DNA from: Candidatus Nomurabacteria bacterium
Lineage (GTDB): Bacteria; Patescibacteriota; Minisyncoccia; Phycocordibacterales; UBA918
Assembly: GCA_020632035.1 (NCBI GenBank)
Contig: JACKGG010000001.1
Coordinates: forward strand, 152,985-216,984
DNA length: 64,000 nt
Direction of reading: 5' to 3'
Numbering within the stretch: position 1 is the first letter of the stretch; each line of letters begins with the position of its first letter. Of the stretch, positions 3,362 through 64,000 are shown in pieces. The notes beneath the pieces were generated by a model. That model did no database searches and had not been told where the DNA came from. It saw nothing but the letters and a program-made list of their open reading frames with translations. Made by a program: the position numbers and the translations under genes.

Positions 3362-3745
3362 ATGATTATCAAACTATTGAGATATGGTACCGTCACTATT
3401 TTAAGTTACGTTATCTTGATCTTTCTCACCTACCTAGCGGTTGACCTACTACATTTCTCACCGACAATTGCCTACCCAATAGTGCTCACGCTTGTGTATG
3501 CTGGAGTGTACGTTGTTTCTTCCACCTTTGTCTTTAAATCTAACGACCACAAGAGGCAGTCTTACCGCTACGTACTTTCAGTAATAGCTTTTTGGTTACT
3601 CAATGTCGGCTTATATACAGCATTGGTAGAAAAACTTGAACTACAATACTTACTCTCAGTAGTCCTAAACATACTCATCTTCGGCCCACTGCGTTACTTT
3701 GTCTACAGTAAGTTTGTTTTCAATAATACAAAACGTGATTTATGA
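3362..3745 (+). CDS. GtrA-like small membrane protein (polysaccharide synthesis, flippase accessory)
   Basis: 127 aa, 4 TM helices, C-terminal RYFVYSKFVF motif typical of GtrA family; adjacent to GtrB-like GT2. Confidence 0.55.
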   Translation: MIIKLLRYGTVTILSYVILIFLTYLAVDLLHFSPTIAYPIVLTLVYAGVYVVSSTFVFKSNDHKRQSYRYVLSVIAFWLLNVGLYTALVEKLELQYLLSVVLNILIFGPLRYFVYSKFVFNNTKRDL

Positions 3746-6168: not shown

Positions 6169-6891
6169 ATGAAAGCAGTAATATTAGCTGGTGGACAAAG
6201 TAAACGTCTGCACCCAATGACAATTAATGAGCCCAAATGTTTACTTGAGTTTGAAGGAAGGACTATGCTTTCTAGATATTTGGACCTATTAGAAGCGGAA
6301 AAAATTGATACAACTTTTGTTGTCACCGGCTTCAATCATGAGGCTGTGAAGACTGAAATTAATTCAGTCAAGCGAGAAATGAATATTGAAACTATCCTTA
6401 ACACAGACTTTGAAAAAGAAGACAATCATCCTATACATGGCTTCTTTTTAACTAAGAATTATTTAGACGATGATTTCCTGCTACTAAACTCTGATATATA
6501 TTTCACCCAAGATACTTTAGATAAACTTATAAAAAATAAAAATAGTTGTGTGGCAGTTGATTCACAATCTTTATTTATACCGGGTGAGATGTTTGTAAAT
6601 TACGATTCCAATATGATTGTAAGCGATATATCCAAATCTCTACAACAGCGCTCTTCTGGACAAGGAAAGAGCGTCCAGGTTGTAAAGATTCTAAAAGAAG
6701 ATAGCGATGCCTTGTTTGAAAGAGTCGAAGAGTTATGTGGCCAGAAAAATGCTTTCTACCCAGCCCAAGCATATGACGTTCTTATTAAAAAAGATAAATT
6801 CTTTGCTTTTGATATAAATGGAGAATTTTCACACGAATTGGATACAGTAGAGGACTATCATTCTCTACGGGAACACTTAGACAATAAATAG
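6169..6891 (+). CDS. Sugar/alcohol-phosphate cytidylyl(nucleotidyl)transferase, LicC/IspD-like
   Basis: N-terminal MKAVILAGGQSKRLHPMT...PKCLL signature of NTP_transferase family (resembles LicC CTP:phosphocholine cytidylyltransferase N-terminus). Confidence 0.55.
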   Translation: MKAVILAGGQSKRLHPMTINEPKCLLEFEGRTMLSRYLDLLEAEKIDTTFVVTGFNHEAVKTEINSVKREMNIETILNTDFEKEDNHPIHGFFLTKNYLDDDFLLLNSDIYFTQDTLDKLIKNKNSCVAVDSQSLFIPGEMFVNYDSNMIVSDISKSLQQRSSGQGKSVQVVKILKEDSDALFERVEELCGQKNAFYPAQAYDVLIKKDKFFAFDINGEFSHELDTVEDYHSLREHLDNK

Positions 6892-6937: not shown

Positions 6938-8068
6938 ATGTATAAACTAAGACTAATTTTATTACACACCTTACATAAACTACTATCTGTCTTCCCAAGA
7001 AGTAACAAAACCTGGGCATTTATTGGATGGAACCGCACTCCGGACGGTGAGATATTTACTGACAACACTAAATATCTCTACTTGTACGTTCTGGAACATC
7101 AACTAGAAATAAAGCCCGTATGGCTTGCCAAAAGTAGAGATGATGCTAAAAAAATGCGCTCTATGGGCATGAAATCCTACTACCAATTTTCATTAACAGG
7201 TATCTTCTACGCCTTACACGCAGGAGTAACGATCATAGATGCTAATCTCCATGATTGGAATTTTGTTTATGTTGGACGCAGTAAACTAGTACAATTACTA
7301 CACGGAAAAGGCATGAAGGCCCAAGGCTATAGTAAACCAGGATTGAGAGACCATGACTTGATTTGCTACCCTTCTGCTGGTGTTCAATCTATGATATCTG
7401 GAGCCTTTGCACAAAATGCAATAAAAAAAATAACTGGTTACCCTAGAAGCGATATAGTTATGGGCGAGGAATATCAGTATTCCTCATTTGGAGTTGATGA
7501 TAAAACAAAAGATTTAATCAGTGAACTTAAGCGAAAAGAAACCAAGATCATTTGGTATGCTCCTACTTTCCGTCGAGGTCAACAGTTTTTTGACGTAGAT
7601 AAAATATTGAATCTGTCAAAACTAACCCCTCAGTTAAAACAAAAAAACTATCATCTGCTTATTTCACTCCACCCAAAGTATAGTAGCCAAAATAGTACCA
7701 TTAGTAATTCCAATGTCAGTTTTTTGCCTGCTCAGGATTTCTTTCCACTTTATCAATACATTGATCTACTGATCACTGACTACTCTTCGAGTTTTACGGA
7801 TTTTCTTCTTCTAGACAGACCGATCATATTTTACCCATATGATCTTGATGAGTACTGTAAGAATGAAGGCATTCTGATTGATTACAACTCTGAAACTCCA
7901 GGACCTAAGGCTTATACTCCCGAAGAATTACATACTACTATATCTAACCAACTTACTGACGATACTCATAAAGAAGAAAGACTGTTGGCAAAAAATAAAT
8001 ATCACGACTTTACTGACACCGACAATGCTGAGAGAGTTTTTAATAGTATAACTAAAGAGCTGCTTTAG
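6938..8068 (+). CDS. CDP-alcohol (CDP-glycerol-type) phosphotransferase, TagB/TagF-like
   Basis: Glyphos_transf-like motifs IIWYAPTFR, HPKY, ITDYSS, IFYPYDLDEY. Confidence 0.6.
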   Translation: MYKLRLILLHTLHKLLSVFPRSNKTWAFIGWNRTPDGEIFTDNTKYLYLYVLEHQLEIKPVWLAKSRDDAKKMRSMGMKSYYQFSLTGIFYALHAGVTIIDANLHDWNFVYVGRSKLVQLLHGKGMKAQGYSKPGLRDHDLICYPSAGVQSMISGAFAQNAIKKITGYPRSDIVMGEEYQYSSFGVDDKTKDLISELKRKETKIIWYAPTFRRGQQFFDVDKILNLSKLTPQLKQKNYHLLISLHPKYSSQNSTISNSNVSFLPAQDFFPLYQYIDLLITDYSSSFTDFLLLDRPIIFYPYDLDEYCKNEGILIDYNSETPGPKAYTPEELHTTISNQLTDDTHKEERLLAKNKYHDFTDTDNAERVFNSITKELL

Positions 8069-41470: not shown

Positions 41471-41772
41471 GTCCGCGCTCTAGGGTTCGAACCTAGGACC
41501 TTTCGAGTATCAGTCGAATGCTCTACCAACCCTATTGCCTCGTAAACATCGGCAATTCGCTCCGCGACCGGGAAAAATACTATACGTATTTTTCAGCTCG
41601 CGCGTACAAGTAAAAAACATCGTCCGCGCTCTAGGGTTCGAACCTAGGACCTTTCGAGTATCAGTCGAATGCTCTACCAACCCTATTGCCTCGTAAACAT
41701 CGGCAATTCGCTCCGCGACCGGGAAAAATACTATACGTATTTTTCAGCTCGCGCGTACAAGTAAAAAACATC
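41471..41772 (-). repeat. Perfect 2 x 151-bp tandem repeat, each unit = 3' ~60 nt of tRNA-Ile + 90-nt spacer
   Basis: Units 41471-41621 and 41622-41772 are identical by eye; each begins with tRNA-Ile 3' portion (T-arm, anticodon arm, part of D-arm) and diverges at the D-loop. Confidence 0.85.
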
Positions 41773-41773
41773 G

Positions 41774-41846
41774 TCCGCGCTCTAGGGTTCGAACCTAGGA
41801 CCTTTCGAGTATCAGTCGAATGCTCTACCAACTGAGCTAAGCGCGG
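41774..41846 (-). tRNA. tRNA-Ile (anticodon GAU)
   Basis: Minus-strand 73-nt cloverleaf: acceptor CCGCGCT/AGCGCGG, D-arm GCTC-AGTTGGTA-GAGC, anticodon loop CTGATAC, T-arm CTAGG-TTCGAAC-CCTAG, discriminator A; CCA not encoded. Confidence 0.85.
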
Positions 41847-41962
41847 ACGATGTTTTCTAACAACGTGGCCAAAACTATAGCAGATTTTAACAATATTTGA
41901 AAGGGTAAAAATGAAAACCGACAGGGTTTGGAACCTTGCCGGTTTAGTGTCGCCGCTAACAA

Positions 41963-42226
41963 CTACATATTGTGGATCGTGAGCAAATCCTCAAAAGTTG
42001 CTCTTGGGAAAGTTGTTTCTCTCCGGTACTTCTCTGGTGCATTTTCACACCGCACCAAGACTTCCTCTTGCTCGAAGGCAACGCACTCACCAGTCAGAGG
42101 ATCGTACCTCTCTACTGGTAGATTAACGGTGACTTCAGCTGCGGAAGGGCCTACGACATGAAACATAGACCATGAAGCGAAAGCTAGTACACCTAATGGT
42201 AACAATATTTTTTTCAACAAACTCAT
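41963..42226 (-). CDS. Small secreted protein (87 aa)
   Basis: Alternative start (TTG) with RBS aggggacaATG; signal peptide MSLLKKILLPLGVLAFASWS. Confidence 0.4.
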   Translation of the reverse strand: MSLLKKILLPLGVLAFASWSMFHVVGPSAAEVTVNLPVERYDPLTGECVAFEQEEVLVRCENAPEKYRRETTFPRATFEDLLTIHNM

Positions 42227-42367
42227 TGTCCCCTAACCTCTTTGTTAGAAATTGTTACAAATGAAAACCACGCCGGATGACGCGAGACAGCATTATATAC
42301 GTTTTTTTACAAAAGTCAAACTGTTAAATTCATCCATACTGACTTCGACCTGCGGTATAATATTTAT

Positions 42368-42808
42368 ATGAAAAAAACCACTGCTCTAGCCTCGCTTCTT
42401 CTGTTACCAGTAATAACTCATGCTGAATCACTTCAGACTTTTTTCACTAACTTCATACAATTTCTAAGTAACATAGTCATCCCCTTTTTACTTGGAATAG
42501 CCTTTCTTTTCTTCGTAATCAATGCCTTTAGATTCTTTATATATGGTGGTGACAACGAAGAAGATCAGACAAAGGCTAAAACTTTAGCCATCTATAGTAT
42601 TTCAGCCTTTATATTAATCATTACCTTTTGGGGAATAATTAATTTATTAGTCAGTAGCTTAGGTTTTGGTGGAGTAGATCAACCACCATCTGACTACGTG
42701 TGTCCAGATGGTTTATGTCCAGAAAATCAAGAGCCTGATTGGATTCCTCCAATAGACAACCCTTGTAATGACCCGACCAACCCAGCTTGTAATCCGGGCA
42801 GGGCTTAG
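42368..42808 (+). CDS. Secreted two-TM protein, TrbC/VirB2-like T4SS-pilin candidate with Cys/Pro-rich C-terminus
   Basis: Signal peptide MKKTTALASLLLLPVITHA, two hydrophobic helices, C-terminal CPDGLCPENQEPDWIPPIDNPCNDPTNPACNPG; followed by terminator 42820-42856. Confidence 0.3.
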   Translation: MKKTTALASLLLLPVITHAESLQTFFTNFIQFLSNIVIPFLLGIAFLFFVINAFRFFIYGGDNEEDQTKAKTLAIYSISAFILIITFWGIINLLVSSLGFGGVDQPPSDYVCPDGLCPENQEPDWIPPIDNPCNDPTNPACNPGRA

Positions 42809-42819
42809 ACTTAATAAAC

Positions 42820-42856
42820 AAAAGACGGTGGCCTTTGGGCCACCGTCTTTTGTTTA
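42820..42856 (+). terminator. Rho-independent terminator
   Basis: aaaagacggtggcc-tttg-ggccaccgtcttttgtttatt. Confidence 0.7.
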
Positions 42857-43087
42857 TTAAAACTCTACTTCTGTTCGTAAGGGTTTATTCATAATCATAA
42901 CTCACAGCAGACTTGGAGTGTCACGTACTCTTTTGTCTTATCCTTTAGGCTTGGTCTTTCCCAAGAGTCTAATACCATTTCAGAGAATTGAGTATCATTT
43001 CTCGTTATGTGCTCAATTGAGGCACATAACACCGACCAATTAGTTATCATTGTGCTTTGTTACCAAAACACGACAACGTATCCAATT

Positions 43088-44545
<1,458 letters not shown>

Positions 44546-61714: not shown

Positions 61715-62386
61715 CTATATCTCAAAATCTTCTTTTGCGCCTGAATTTTCAACAAACTCCTGGTATTCTTCAAAAGACCCAAAAGTGCTAGTAATAACCT
61801 CCCCTACTAACAATTTTTTCCATCTGTTGCTGAGATAATCTTGGTAACTAGACCACGGATAAGAAATTGTATTATTTTTCCACCGTCTCAGTTCATTAGG
61901 ATTGCGATGTATATACGCTGACAGATAGGTCAATTGTTCATCACTTTCCACTAACTTTACTTTATAAGCACCTTGAAACACATGTCCTGACTTCTCATAC
62001 CGCTTATTGAAATATTGGGAATAGGCGTTGCTTAGTTTATGCATATACCTAGACAAGCCATCATCACTTAAAGTCCTCACTGTTAAATGAAAGTGGTTTG
62101 GCATTATGCAAAAATTTATTATCTCGACAAACCTCTCACTTACAATATTATCTAGATCTTTATTTTTAACCAAAAAGTCCTCTTTCTTTAGGTAATTTTT
62201 AACAAAACGATTTGTTTGAGGTAGGGAAACGGGAGACTGCATATGCATAGCAAGGAATAGAAAACGAACATAATCAGAACGGTCATAAAAAAGCGTCTGC
62301 TTTAAATTTCCTCTATTGTATACGTGGTAATAATTATCCTCAATAATTTTCAAAGATCTCATATCAACAGCATACCAGTATAGCAA
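61715..62386 (-). mobile_element. HUH Y1 tyrosine transposase, IS200/RAYT-like (paralog of 33166-33849)
   Basis: HuH motif CIMPNHFHLTVRT, Tyr region SAYIHRNP; YYHVYNRGN N-terminus like the other copy; flanked by identical 23-bp palindromes. Confidence 0.6.
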
Positions 62387-62633: not shown

Positions 62634-62791
62634 AAGTTGGCGCCTACCTACTCTTCCCCTTGCGGAGTACCATCGGTGGTAGAAGACTTTGGCTTTCAAA
62701 CGAGCGAGAGAAACGAAAGTGGACCGCAGTCAATTTTCATTTACGAGCAAGTAAAAAAGTGACCGTGCCGTGTTCGGAATGAGAACGGGTG
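62634..62791 (-). pseudogene. Interrupted/variant 5S rRNA copy (3' half + about 75-nt insertion + 5S core motif, divergent 5' end)
   Basis: Shares aagttggcgcctacctactcttccccttgcggagtaccatcggtggtagaagacttt with the intact 5S, then unrelated insert, then ccgtgttcggaatgagaacgggtg. Confidence 0.5.
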
Positions 62792-62916
62792 AGCTAGTCT
62801 GGGAGACTAGCGCAAGACTCGCCCAGCAATTTTGTGAGTTTCGAGACAAAATAGCGAGCGAGTGGACAGCCGCTGTAAGAGGGACCCCTTTCGCAAATCA
62901 CCCAAAGCAAAACAAA

Positions 62917-62938
62917 AAGTCACCTTGCGGTGACTTTT
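62917..62938. terminator. Rho-independent terminator hairpin between 5S copies
   Basis: aaagtcacc-ttgc-ggtgacttt with flanking A/T runs. Confidence 0.5.
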
Positions 62939-62957
62939 CAGGAGAATTAAATGCTTA

Positions 62958-63032
62958 AAGTTGGCGCCTACCTACTCTTCCCCTTGCGGAGTACCATCGG
63001 TGGTAGAAGACTTTACTGCCGTGTTCGGAATG
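62958..63032 (-). pseudogene. Truncated 5S rRNA copy (3' about 75 nt)
   Basis: Identical to 3' two-thirds of intact 5S through ccgtgttcggaatg, then diverges. Confidence 0.55.
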
Positions 63033-63121
63033 CTCAATGTTTGTTCAAGAGCTTGCGATTGAACACAAACATTAGTCCTTTAGGGCGAACGGTCTAAAAG
63101 TTTTTAAAAATCAAGCTCTTC

Positions 63122-63233
63122 AAGTTGGCGCCTACCTACTCTTCCCCTTGCGGAGTACCATCGGTGGTAGAAGACTTTACTGCCGTGTTCGGAATGAGAA
63201 CGGGTGTACCCCTTCCCCCAAAGCACCAACTTG
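63122..63233 (-). rRNA. rrf: 5S ribosomal RNA
   Basis: Minus strand AAGTTGGTGC...CACCCGTTCTCATTCCGAACACGGCAG...GATGGTACTCC...GAGTAGGTAGGCGCCAACTT; helix I pairing of ends; matches bacterial 5S consensus (CCGAACACGG, GATGGTA). Confidence 0.8.
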
Positions 63234-63415
63234 AAAGGCTCGATTTTGATTTTAAAAAACTTTTAGTTGTGTACCCTTGAAATTGTCTCCCAGACAATTT
63301 CAATCCCTCAGCACCAACTTTAAGAATTTAATTCGTTATTTAACTTGCTTCAATCGCGTGAAATGGTGATATGTTGTCGTGAGTCCTTATACTCTGATTA
63401 GTAACATCTCGTAAA

Positions 63416-63524
63416 TGGTAGGGGTAGCAGGAATTGAACCCACCGCCTTTGCTTGATCGCACTCGTAGCGAGCTCAGGCCCTTCGCGAGAACCAGTATTC
63501 TTTGTCCATCCAAGTGGTACCCCT
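63416..63524 (-). ncRNA. tRNA-like structured element (acceptor-like stem + T-arm-like GGTTCAATTCC + encoded CCA) in 23S-5S spacer, flanked by 17-bp inverted repeats
   Basis: Minus strand AGGGGTA...GTGGGTTCAATTCCTGCTACCCCTACCA; inverted repeats caatcgcgtgaaatggt at 63351-63368 and 63562-63578; could not be folded into a canonical cloverleaf. Confidence 0.25.
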
Positions 63525-63789
63525 TGAATAAACTACTGACACTCTATACCCCCGTGAAATTACCATTTCACGCGATTGAAAATTCACATATTCAAGAGAC
63601 TCTTCGAACTCGACCTTTCAGCCGAGCATTAGGTAACACTTCACTCATCAAATTACACAGTTCAAAATCTTACAAATTGCCTGCATTTCTAGGCGCGCCA
63701 GAAAGATTTTTGGAACGGGGCTTGTGCCCAGTGACAAAAATCTTTTGCCAGCGCAACACCGAAATGCTGCAATTTTAAGGTTTTGATGT

Positions 63790-64000
<211 letters not shown>

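Follow-up and report, generated by a model that had tools for sequence, protein, structure and literature searches.

In canonical bacterial rRNA operons, tRNAs located between 16S and 23S (tRNA-Ile and tRNA-Ala) or distally, after 5S, lie between two rRNA processing stems on one transcript, and the action of RNase P and of 3' processing on spacer tRNAs helps to separate the rRNA precursors. tRNAs between 23S and 5S are unusual. The element described here lies in the 23S-5S spacer of a Candidatus Nomurabacteria bacterium and would share with the canonical spacer tRNAs a setting between two processing stems of a single transcript. At this very site a relative, L058, keeps a tRNA-Gly and a tRNA-Pro, whereas the copy in our window (the whole 64-kb stretch of DNA analysed) lacks an anticodon arm and is rejected by every tRNA model. 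For some CPR genomes, Lui et al. (PMC8172020) mention that tRNAs or genes lie between 23S and 5S.

In the archaeon Haloferax volcanii, a tRNA-like element reportedly adjoins the 5' end of 5S, and tRNase Z is said to create that end. Like the window element, it is tRNA-like, non-decoding and located in the 23S-5S spacer, and it shares the proposed role of recruiting a tRNA-end-processing enzyme for rRNA maturation. The window element differs in being bacterial, in encoding CCA, in lying 185 nt upstream of 5S and in being enclosed by a 19-22-bp helix of its own, and its cleavage is putative. An encoded CCA generally disfavours RNase Z. Maturation of the 5S 5' end by the Haloferax enzyme is attributed, in the account given in PMC7714728, to Hoelzle 2008 (RNA 14:928). 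The t-elements of plant mitochondria, substrates of RNase P and RNase Z (Forner et al. 2007, PMC1920247; also Hanic-Joyce 1990), are degenerate tRNA-derived sequences that keep a T-arm and an acceptor-like stem, sit in longer transcripts and act as RNase P/RNase Z signals, as is proposed here for the window element; once excised, such an element can carry CCA. They are, however, organellar, they flank mRNAs and their C or CCA is added rather than encoded, whereas the window element is bacterial, belongs to an rRNA spacer, encodes its CCA and has the extra helix.

Mimicry of an acceptor and T-arm without an anticodon is also seen in the tRNA-like domain of tmRNA, in the bacterial Y RNA YrlA and in the mascRNA of MALAT1, the last of which owes its release to RNase P and RNase Z and acquires CCA. 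None of them is related to the window element by descent. A search for tmRNA (ARAGORN -m at a 70% threshold) returned none, and there is no Rfam match, no tag frame and no G3-U70; for YrlA there is no Rfam match at E<=10, and, as we read its layout, the window element has its free ends on the acceptor side, not on the opposite side. We found no description of this spacer element in the literature.

The minus-strand spacer between the Rfam-defined ends of 23S (63800) and 5S (63230-63123) measures 570 nt and holds the whole of 63351-63578, as the first-pass annotation had placed it (Table 1). The window's 23S-5S operon is not linked to the 16S gene. Between 23S and 5S the rRNA strand shows neither promoter-like nor terminator-like sites, the first terminator-like hairpin being at 62940-62913. 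Neither end of the tRNA-like module shares a boundary with a mature rRNA: 246 nt separate the 23S end from its 5' end (63553), and its CCA end (63416) precedes the 5S start by 185 nt. A 114-aa open reading frame in the spacer is spurious, with no match in an exact look-up or a protein search. The genuine tRNA-Ile(GAU) of the window has no encoded CCA.

Table 1. Features of the 23S-5S spacer and its borders, in 5' to 3' order of the rRNA strand (window coordinates)
Feature	Coordinates	Strand	Remarks
23S rRNA gene, 3' end	63800..64000	-	Runs past the window edge; Rfam LSU_rRNA_bacteria, 167.6 bits, model 2711-2925 of 2925
Conserved spacer segment UCUUGAAUAUGUGAA	63583..63597	-	Just 5' of the P1 helix
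P1 helix, 5' arm (UUCAAUCGCGUGAAAUGGU)	63562..63580	-	Perfect 19-nt inverted repeat with 63349-63367
Linker AAUUUCAC	63554..63561	-	Between P1 and acceptor stem; matches UUUCA (L040), UUGCA (L036), UCAAA (L047)
Acceptor stem, 5' strand GGGGGUA	63547..63553	-	G1-U72 wobble; placed by homology and fold energy
Interior, 103 nt	63444..63546	-	D-arm-like GAGU/AUUC (63544-63526), D-loop-like CUUGGAU, remnant ACUGGU of the anticodon-stem 5' strand
Internal AGGGGUA (acceptor 5' strand of the first-pass annotation)	63518..63524	-	7/7 complementary to UACCCCU; no counterpart in relatives
T-arm GUGGG / UUCAAUU / CCUGC	63427..63443	-	Canonical T-loop
Acceptor stem, 3' strand UACCCCU	63420..63426	-	Contiguous with the T-arm, tRNA-like
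Discriminator A and encoded CCA (ACCA)	63416..63419	-	Present in 6/7 elements
3' hairpin GAGAUGUUAC...GAGU-AUAAGG-ACUC...CAACAUAUC	63368..63410	-	Conserved in L040 and L036
P1 helix, 3' arm (ACCAUUUCACGCGAUUGAA)	63349..63367	-	Pairs with 63562-63580
5S rRNA gene, complete, with its own flanking stem	63123..63230	-	Rfam 5S_rRNA, 70 bits, model 1-120; flanking inverted repeats I2, I5

The outermost part of the element is a helix, P1, formed by an inverted repeat that had been recorded as 17 bp and is real but slightly longer, with 19 perfect base pairs, or 22 nt when one mismatch is allowed. When the 19-nt arm was searched for with up to 3 mismatches, its 2 matches in the window were the two arms themselves, against 0 expected. 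The components of a tRNA-like end that the first-pass annotation had listed within the repeat (T-arm, TACCCCT, ACCA and a complementary AGGGGTA) were each confirmed on the minus strand, and its view of the element as tRNA-related and carried on the rRNA strand is borne out. We defined a composite motif as a 5-bp stem with a 7-nt loop (U1, A5), followed directly by a 7-nt strand with a 7/7 upstream partner and then by NCCA. It occurs once on the two strands of the 64-kb window, where 0.055 occurrences are expected by chance per 64 kb; at least one arose in 11 of 200 dinucleotide shuffles. The interior sequence has no second copy in the window or in any locus examined.

The same annotation had taken the internal AGGGGUA for the 5' strand of the acceptor stem and had thereby arrived at an element of 109 nt (63416-63524). 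In the preferred fold this strand is part of a long hairpin within the enlarged D region. The upstream GGGGGUA (63553-63547) comes after the linker UUUCAC exactly as in relatives, at the position of CGGGGTG in L040, CGATGAG in L036, CGGAGTG in L056 and CGTGGTG in the tRNA-Pro of L058. With P1 and the T-arm enforced, folding reaches -81.1 kcal/mol with the upstream strand versus -71.1 kcal/mol with the internal one. Because the upstream strand matches the position seen in relatives and gives the better constrained fold, a module of ~138 nt (63553-63416) is more likely than one of 109 nt, whose 5' boundary is probably wrong, given the homology and the 10 kcal/mol in favour of 63553-63547. The unconstrained fold (-86.0 kcal/mol) also uses the upstream acceptor strand together with the outer helix; the T-arm is absent from this minimum-free-energy fold, and other pairing replaces it. 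As in a tRNA, the 7-bp acceptor stem directly adjoins a T-arm with a 5-bp stem and a 7-nt loop, and ACCA follows. The interior (63444-63546) comprises two lineage-specific insertions and a variable-loop remnant, without an anticodon loop. In the D region a GAGU/AUUC stem is possible, and CUUGGAU aligns with the D-loop GG of the near-tRNA in L053, an insertion of ~21-27 nt lying between.

A tRNA was accepted if it reached 29 bits, the gathering score of Rfam RF00005, or was called by ARAGORN at default settings. Two of the sequence checks proposed at first pass, an Rfam scan and ARAGORN in intron mode, came back empty: across 62700-64000 Rfam gave no tRNA match for the element at E<=10 and no other family matching the module, and ARAGORN at default settings, with or without introns, made no tRNA call at the element. 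Only when its threshold was lowered to 80% did ARAGORN force a 'Leu(gag)', with a 15-nt intron at 32/33, a mismatched anticodon stem and no class II variable arm; this model is not credible. No anticodon arm with a 5-bp stem and 7-nt loop can be drawn in the element, in agreement with the earlier failure to fold one.

Relatives were reached through the conserved gene order 23S-5S-(x)-VWA-FtsW, in which the VWA-domain protein encoded 1.7 kb downstream of the element has homologues at 56-67% identity. That protein is 100% identical to one listed at NCBI under Candidatus Nomurabacteria, and the identical gene occurs in sequencing runs such as SRR12358675, SRR12358676, SRR776449, SRR7638766 and SRR6747738. 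Used as a query, the VWA protein of the window itself yielded short contigs only, breaking in 5S repeats. A contig scan anchored on the 3' end of 23S returned only distant CPR and other taxa, at most 85% identical there and with no spacer homology, and a metagenome scan with the T-arm/acceptor/CCA pattern found genuine tRNAs only. Four candidates were set aside, namely the distant VWA homologues P0055 and P0108, which have a large CARDB gene upstream, L044, with no rRNA within 7 kb, and L048, with a different inverted repeat and no recognisable tRNA-like module. A relaxed motif scan of all loci proved too unspecific for use; besides the elements already identified, it turned up an additional one in L036, a stem-enclosed tRNA-like module with CCA upstream of 23S.

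In L036, L040, L047, L051, L053 and L056 the spacer has, at the corresponding place, the P1 arm motif CGCGTGAAATGG together with its complement, either unchanged or slightly altered. A covarying version is present in L058, which brings the helix to seven other species in all. Among the 59 loci, the arm motif was found at the orthologous spacer site only. What the helix encloses ranges widely. In the marine L058/L059 it holds a canonical tRNA-Gly(GCC) and tRNA-Pro(CGG), both with encoded CCA; in L058 ARAGORN calls both, and Rfam scores them at 67.8 bits (Gly) and 59.8 bits (Pro). L053 has a near-tRNA (Rfam 45.5 bits) whose anticodon loop lacks 2 nt and whose acceptor stem is bulged; it has no CCA and is miscalled by ARAGORN as Leu(aag). 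Relics of 71 nt (L040), 84 nt (L036) and 76 nt (L056) keep a 7-bp acceptor stem starting with C1-G72, a T-arm and ACCA, a hairpin with a 4-nt loop replaces the anticodon arm, and none has an Rfam tRNA match. The 78-nt relic of L047 retains the acceptor stem and ACCA without a recognisable T-arm. In L051 the helix encloses a 29-nt loop only, and in L052 there is only a 7-bp mini-hairpin, although L052 is the sister of L058 (88% VWA identity), which has two full tRNAs. The relic state occurs on all deep branches of a species tree that is built from one protein only.

The surroundings of P1 can be read with the help of L040. Its homologue of the conserved segment UCUUGAAUAUGUGAA, the 15-nt TTCTTGAATATGCAA (8032-8046), is 100% complementary to 3724-3738, 430 nt upstream of 23S, and this outer 23S stem stops 1 nt before P1. 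A second long-range pair directly flanks 23S, and 5S has its own stem. Given this layout in L040, the P1 module has the 23S stems on one side and the 5S stem on the other, as a classical spacer tRNA would. By extension from L040, UCUUGAAUAUGUGAA probably forms the 3' strand of an outer long-range 23S processing stem in the window as well, where the 23S leader falls beyond position 64000. In the conserved 3' hairpin, the inner stem of L040 and L036 has GGGU/ACCC in place of GAGU/ACUC; in L047, L053 and L056 the hairpin found here is a different one.

Covariation was assessed in an alignment in which the modules are contiguous in every species and which was built by hand around the proposed structure, so that its figures are biased towards that structure. 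Over seven species, 94.9% of the cells are paired and double changes occur in 17/31 pairs; for the six degenerate elements, without the functional tRNA of L058, the values are 94.1% and 11/31. None of 500 shuffles reached the observed pairing or double changes in either set, and slid controls were 31-45% paired for the seven species and 31-47% over both sets. Double changes affect 5 of the 7 acceptor pairs, as in CGGGGTG/CACCCCG vs CGATGAG/CTCATCG, and, of the 5 T-stem pairs, 3 to 4 depending on the set; the six degenerate elements have them in 5/7 acceptor pairs, 3/5 T-stem pairs and 3/19 pairs of P1. Between species the interiors range from 36 to 103 nt and are unalignable, yet the acceptor stem stays paired; since the stretches between the stems defy alignment, plain conservation of sequence does not account for the complementarity that is kept. 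All six species with a T-arm keep U1 and A5 of the T-loop, positions 2 and 3 drifting. In L056 the P1 arm has changed from GGU/ACC to GAU/AUC with ACCA unchanged, and ACCA is thus not kept merely for its pairing with P1. P1 itself is the most strongly conserved part, with 12/19 pairs invariant in the six degenerate elements, 98% of cells paired across species and double changes in 3 to 8 of its 19 pairs. A conserved duplex of ~20 bp or more around an RNA within an rRNA precursor is what an RNase III-type stem looks like, and the suggestion made at first pass of an RNase III-like processing stem fits this helix with its compensatory changes, the cleavage being putative.

Descent of the element from a tRNA appears highly probable to us. 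C1-G72 together with A73 is characteristic of bacterial tRNA-Pro, and the relics keep this combination, as does the tRNA-Pro of L058; the acceptor of the window element starts with G1-U72 instead. Aligned with the near-tRNA of L053, the window element matches in the acceptor stem, the start of the D-stem, the D-loop GG, the 5' strand of the anticodon stem, the variable loop and the T-arm, with ~21-27 extra nt in the D-loop and ~32 in the anticodon loop. Because of the C1-G72/A73 relics and this alignment, the element is, as judged from sequence, a decayed and heavily remodelled spacer tRNA-Pro, homologous to the tRNA-Pro(CGG) that is still canonical in L058. It has lost its anticodon arm, has gained insertions in the D-loop and anticodon loop, and has kept the acceptor stem stacked on the T-stem, the T-loop, A73 and CCA. 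As in a t-element, acceptor and T-arm are retained, decoding capacity is gone and the module is predicted to be embedded in a longer transcript.

We propose that this tRNA-Pro-derived "t-element" is kept as an RNase III/RNase P processing module, a reading that, taken as a whole, we consider on balance probable; for its mechanistic part, the action as a processing signal, we would put the chance at just short of even. The module would be transcribed within the 23S-5S precursor, where it would have the outer 23S processing stem before it and the 5S stem after it, in the place of a classical spacer tRNA. With 19-22 bp, P1 would be long enough to serve as an RNase III target. Bacterial RNase P recognises the 12-bp stack of acceptor and T-stem, the T-loop and an RCCA end. 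Since these determinants recur in the acceptor/T minihelix with its ACCA, which may offer the enzyme what it needs, a cut by RNase P is predicted on the 5' side, near 63553, and trimming from the 3' side would halt at CCA. Cleavage of this kind would part pre-23S from pre-5S and dispose of the spacer, and the decoding parts may have decayed because selection was left on the processing determinants only. The released RNA of ~138 nt is probably a by-product. Some observations run against this proposal. The module is dispensable in some lineages, as the helix with a 29-nt loop in L051 and the mini-hairpin of L052 indicate; L047 lacks the T-arm and L053 the CCA. The 185-nt distance means that the CCA end cannot directly define the 5' end of 5S as in Haloferax, and in the window the T-arm lies outside the minimum-free-energy fold and the acceptor begins with G1-U72 rather than C1-G72.

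The main rival is that a spacer tRNA-Pro is decaying neutrally inside a functional helix, so that only P1 matters for processing and the acceptor stem, T-arm and CCA are leftovers without a role. This would accommodate the loss of the module in L051 and L052, of the T-arm in L047 and of CCA in L053, as well as interiors so different in length (36 to 103 nt) and sequence, a window T-arm missing from the minimum-free-energy fold and the position of P1 as the most conserved part, with its 12/19 invariant pairs. Neutral decay is harder to reconcile with double changes in 5/7 acceptor pairs and in 3-4/5 T-stem pairs around unalignable sequence, with U1/A5 kept in 6/6 T-arms and with ACCA kept in 6/7 elements, including where it is unable to pair with P1; on the single-gene tree, moreover, the relic state on all deep branches implies long persistence. 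We consider this pseudogene explanation unlikely, though one to be taken seriously. Alternatively, the module could become, after its release, a stable small RNA made in rRNA amounts and acting in trans, as a structural RNA associated with the ribosome, as a decoy or substrate for tRNA-binding enzymes, or as a regulator. Being presumably co-transcribed with 23S and 5S, such an RNA would be abundant; its minihelix and ACCA are conserved and tolerate lineage-specific expansions, and L036 has a second stem-enclosed CCA module upstream of 23S. Its absence from L051 and L052, an interior without a conserved recognition surface and the failure to see G3-U70 or any other identity element for anticodon-independent charging nevertheless make this distinctly improbable. 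In mammalian mitoribosomes, mitochondrial tRNA-Val or tRNA-Phe replaces 5S. That the excised, CCA-ended RNA is here a stable product at rRNA stoichiometry with an independent role, such as that of an additional structural RNA in a reduced CPR ribosome, strikes us as very improbable.

The first-pass annotation had itself named three possibilities. An intron-containing or otherwise non-canonical decoding tRNA would explain the 7-bp acceptor stem, canonical T-loop, A73 and CCA, and is what ARAGORN proposes at its 80% threshold as Leu(gag) with a 15-nt intron. The idea is already largely refuted and now hardly conceivable, given the missing Rfam match at E<=10, the silence of ARAGORN at default and in intron mode, the absence of an anticodon stem-loop, the defects of the forced model (mismatched anticodon stem, intron at 32/33, no class II variable arm) and the 4-nt loops that relatives' relics have at the place of the anticodon loop; to our knowledge, bacteria also lack the splicing endonuclease that a short tRNA intron would need. 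Insertion of a tRNA-like MITE or other mobile element was suggested by perfect terminal inverted repeats of 19-22 nt around a tRNA-like cargo, and an IS200/Y1-transposase-like open reading frame lies ~1 kb away, with presence and absence differing between the sisters L052 and L058. The element is, however, single-copy in the 64 kb, with a unique interior. Its arm sequence has no match in viral contigs and among 59 loci occurs at the orthologous spacer site only, no target-site duplication or direct repeat flanks the arms, and the arms covary as an RNA helix; we regard mobility as exceedingly improbable. Of the third suggestion, a novel small RNA co-transcribed with rRNA, the co-transcription agrees with the lack of promoter-like or terminator-like sites between the element and 23S or 5S, but the RNA is not an unrelated novelty, being homologous to the spacer tRNA-Pro of L058. 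The earlier interpretation thus survives in its tRNA relationship, its strand and a helix that fits a processing stem, and falls as to an intron or functional tRNA, a MITE, an unrelated small RNA and the 109-nt boundary.

If the processing-module reading is true, the element would be a bacterial counterpart of the archaeal and organellar tRNA-like processing signals. The series from working spacer tRNAs to relics consisting of an acceptor/T minihelix and CCA would then show which tRNA features are needed for processing without decoding, and would make rRNA maturation accessible to testing in CPR bacteria, with their small set of RNases and unusual rRNA operons. There is also a warning for annotation in that tRNA-derived spacer modules are missed by standard finders or miscalled, as in the 'tRNA-Leu(aag)' of L053. 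The clade has, in addition, a shortened 5S with strange nested 5S-like copies adjoining it.

Stem enclosure seems to be a habit of the rRNA-linked tRNAs in the clade of the window. The tRNA-Ile(GAU) downstream of the 16S gene (41762-41857, minus strand) is a genuine tRNA without an encoded CCA. Base pairing between its leader of 10 nt, AAAACAUCGU, and the segment made up of discriminator and trailer, ACGAUGUUUU, lengthens the acceptor stem into a continuous helix of 17 bp. A similar enclosure surrounds the tRNA-Gly of L058, a relative with canonical tRNA-Gly and tRNA-Pro genes in its 23S-5S spacer.

L048, a locus more distantly related to the window than those bearing the P1 helix, which encloses the tRNA-Pro-derived relic of the window, has a different inverted repeat of 16 nt or more at the corresponding spacer position (~2097-2295; TTGTGTTTTGTGAGGA / TCCTCACAAAACACAA), and no tRNA-like module was recognisable in the ~165 nt that it encloses. 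In L015, a Saccharibacteria MAG, a tRNA lies between 23S and 5S (6599-6673, minus strand; Rfam 58.9 bits); its CCA is encoded, its anticodon loop has 6 nt, and ARAGORN labels it 'tRNA-???'. Defects in tRNAs of the 23S-5S spacer may occur more widely in CPR.

The 5S region of the window (62640-63334, minus strand) contains several 5S-like copies that are nested and fragmented, and the complete 5S gene (63230-63123), together with its own long flanking stem, is enclosed by an outer 5S-like shell. Similar outer shells were found in L048 and in L052, the sister species of L058. Because Tsurumaki et al. (2024; PMC11270868) found no insertion of at least 100 bp among CPR 5S genes, this nested arrangement looks undescribed. 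The next feature immediately downstream of these 5S repeats is an IS200-like Y1 transposase ORF. In relatives, the position of this ORF is occupied instead by an aminotransferase, by hypothetical genes or by a large CARDB-like protein, and the interval between 5S and the gene for the VWA-domain protein has no called gene in L058, L052 and another compared locus, L056.

The rRNA genes of the window are unlinked, with 16S and tRNA-Ile at 41773-44544 whereas the 23S-5S unit occupies 63123-64000. The former pair lies ~18.6 kb downstream of the latter, with protein genes intervening, and such unlinked rRNA genes are known from many CPR genomes (PMC8172020).

Features of the window and of compared loci of other genomes
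Feature	Locus	Position	Strand	Details
IS200-like Y1 transposase ORF	window	61715-62386	minus	Pfam PF01797, E 1.5e-12
Outer 5S-like shell, 5' piece	window	63323-63273	minus	contains hairpin insert
Outer 5S-like shell, 3' piece	window	63032-62958	minus	identical to 3' two-thirds of 5S
Third 5S-like copy, fragmented	window	62791-62766 + 62692-62640	minus	
Terminator-like hairpins	window	62940-62913; ~62606-62580		one after each 5S-like unit
16S	window	44544-43085	same as 23S-5S unit	
Leader module, inverted repeat	L036			21 nt, TGTTGTGAGCTCCAAGGATGA / TCATCCTTGGAGCTCGCAACA
Leader module, acceptor stem	L036			GGAGGGA/TCCCTCC, inside the inverted repeat
Leader module, T-arm	L036			GTCAG-TGTAAAT-CTGGC, then G + CCA
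Group I intron in 23S	L040	7035-7369		Rfam 93 bits
Group I intron in 23S	L016	5133-5395		Rfam 72 bits

L036 has another tRNA-like module enclosed by a stem (2670-2839), located in the leader 5' to its 23S gene, and no tRNA finder made a call there; the corresponding place in L040 holds only an empty hairpin, and in the window the 23S leader falls past position 64000. Group I introns, a known feature of CPR 23S genes, interrupt the 23S genes of the relatives L040 and L016.
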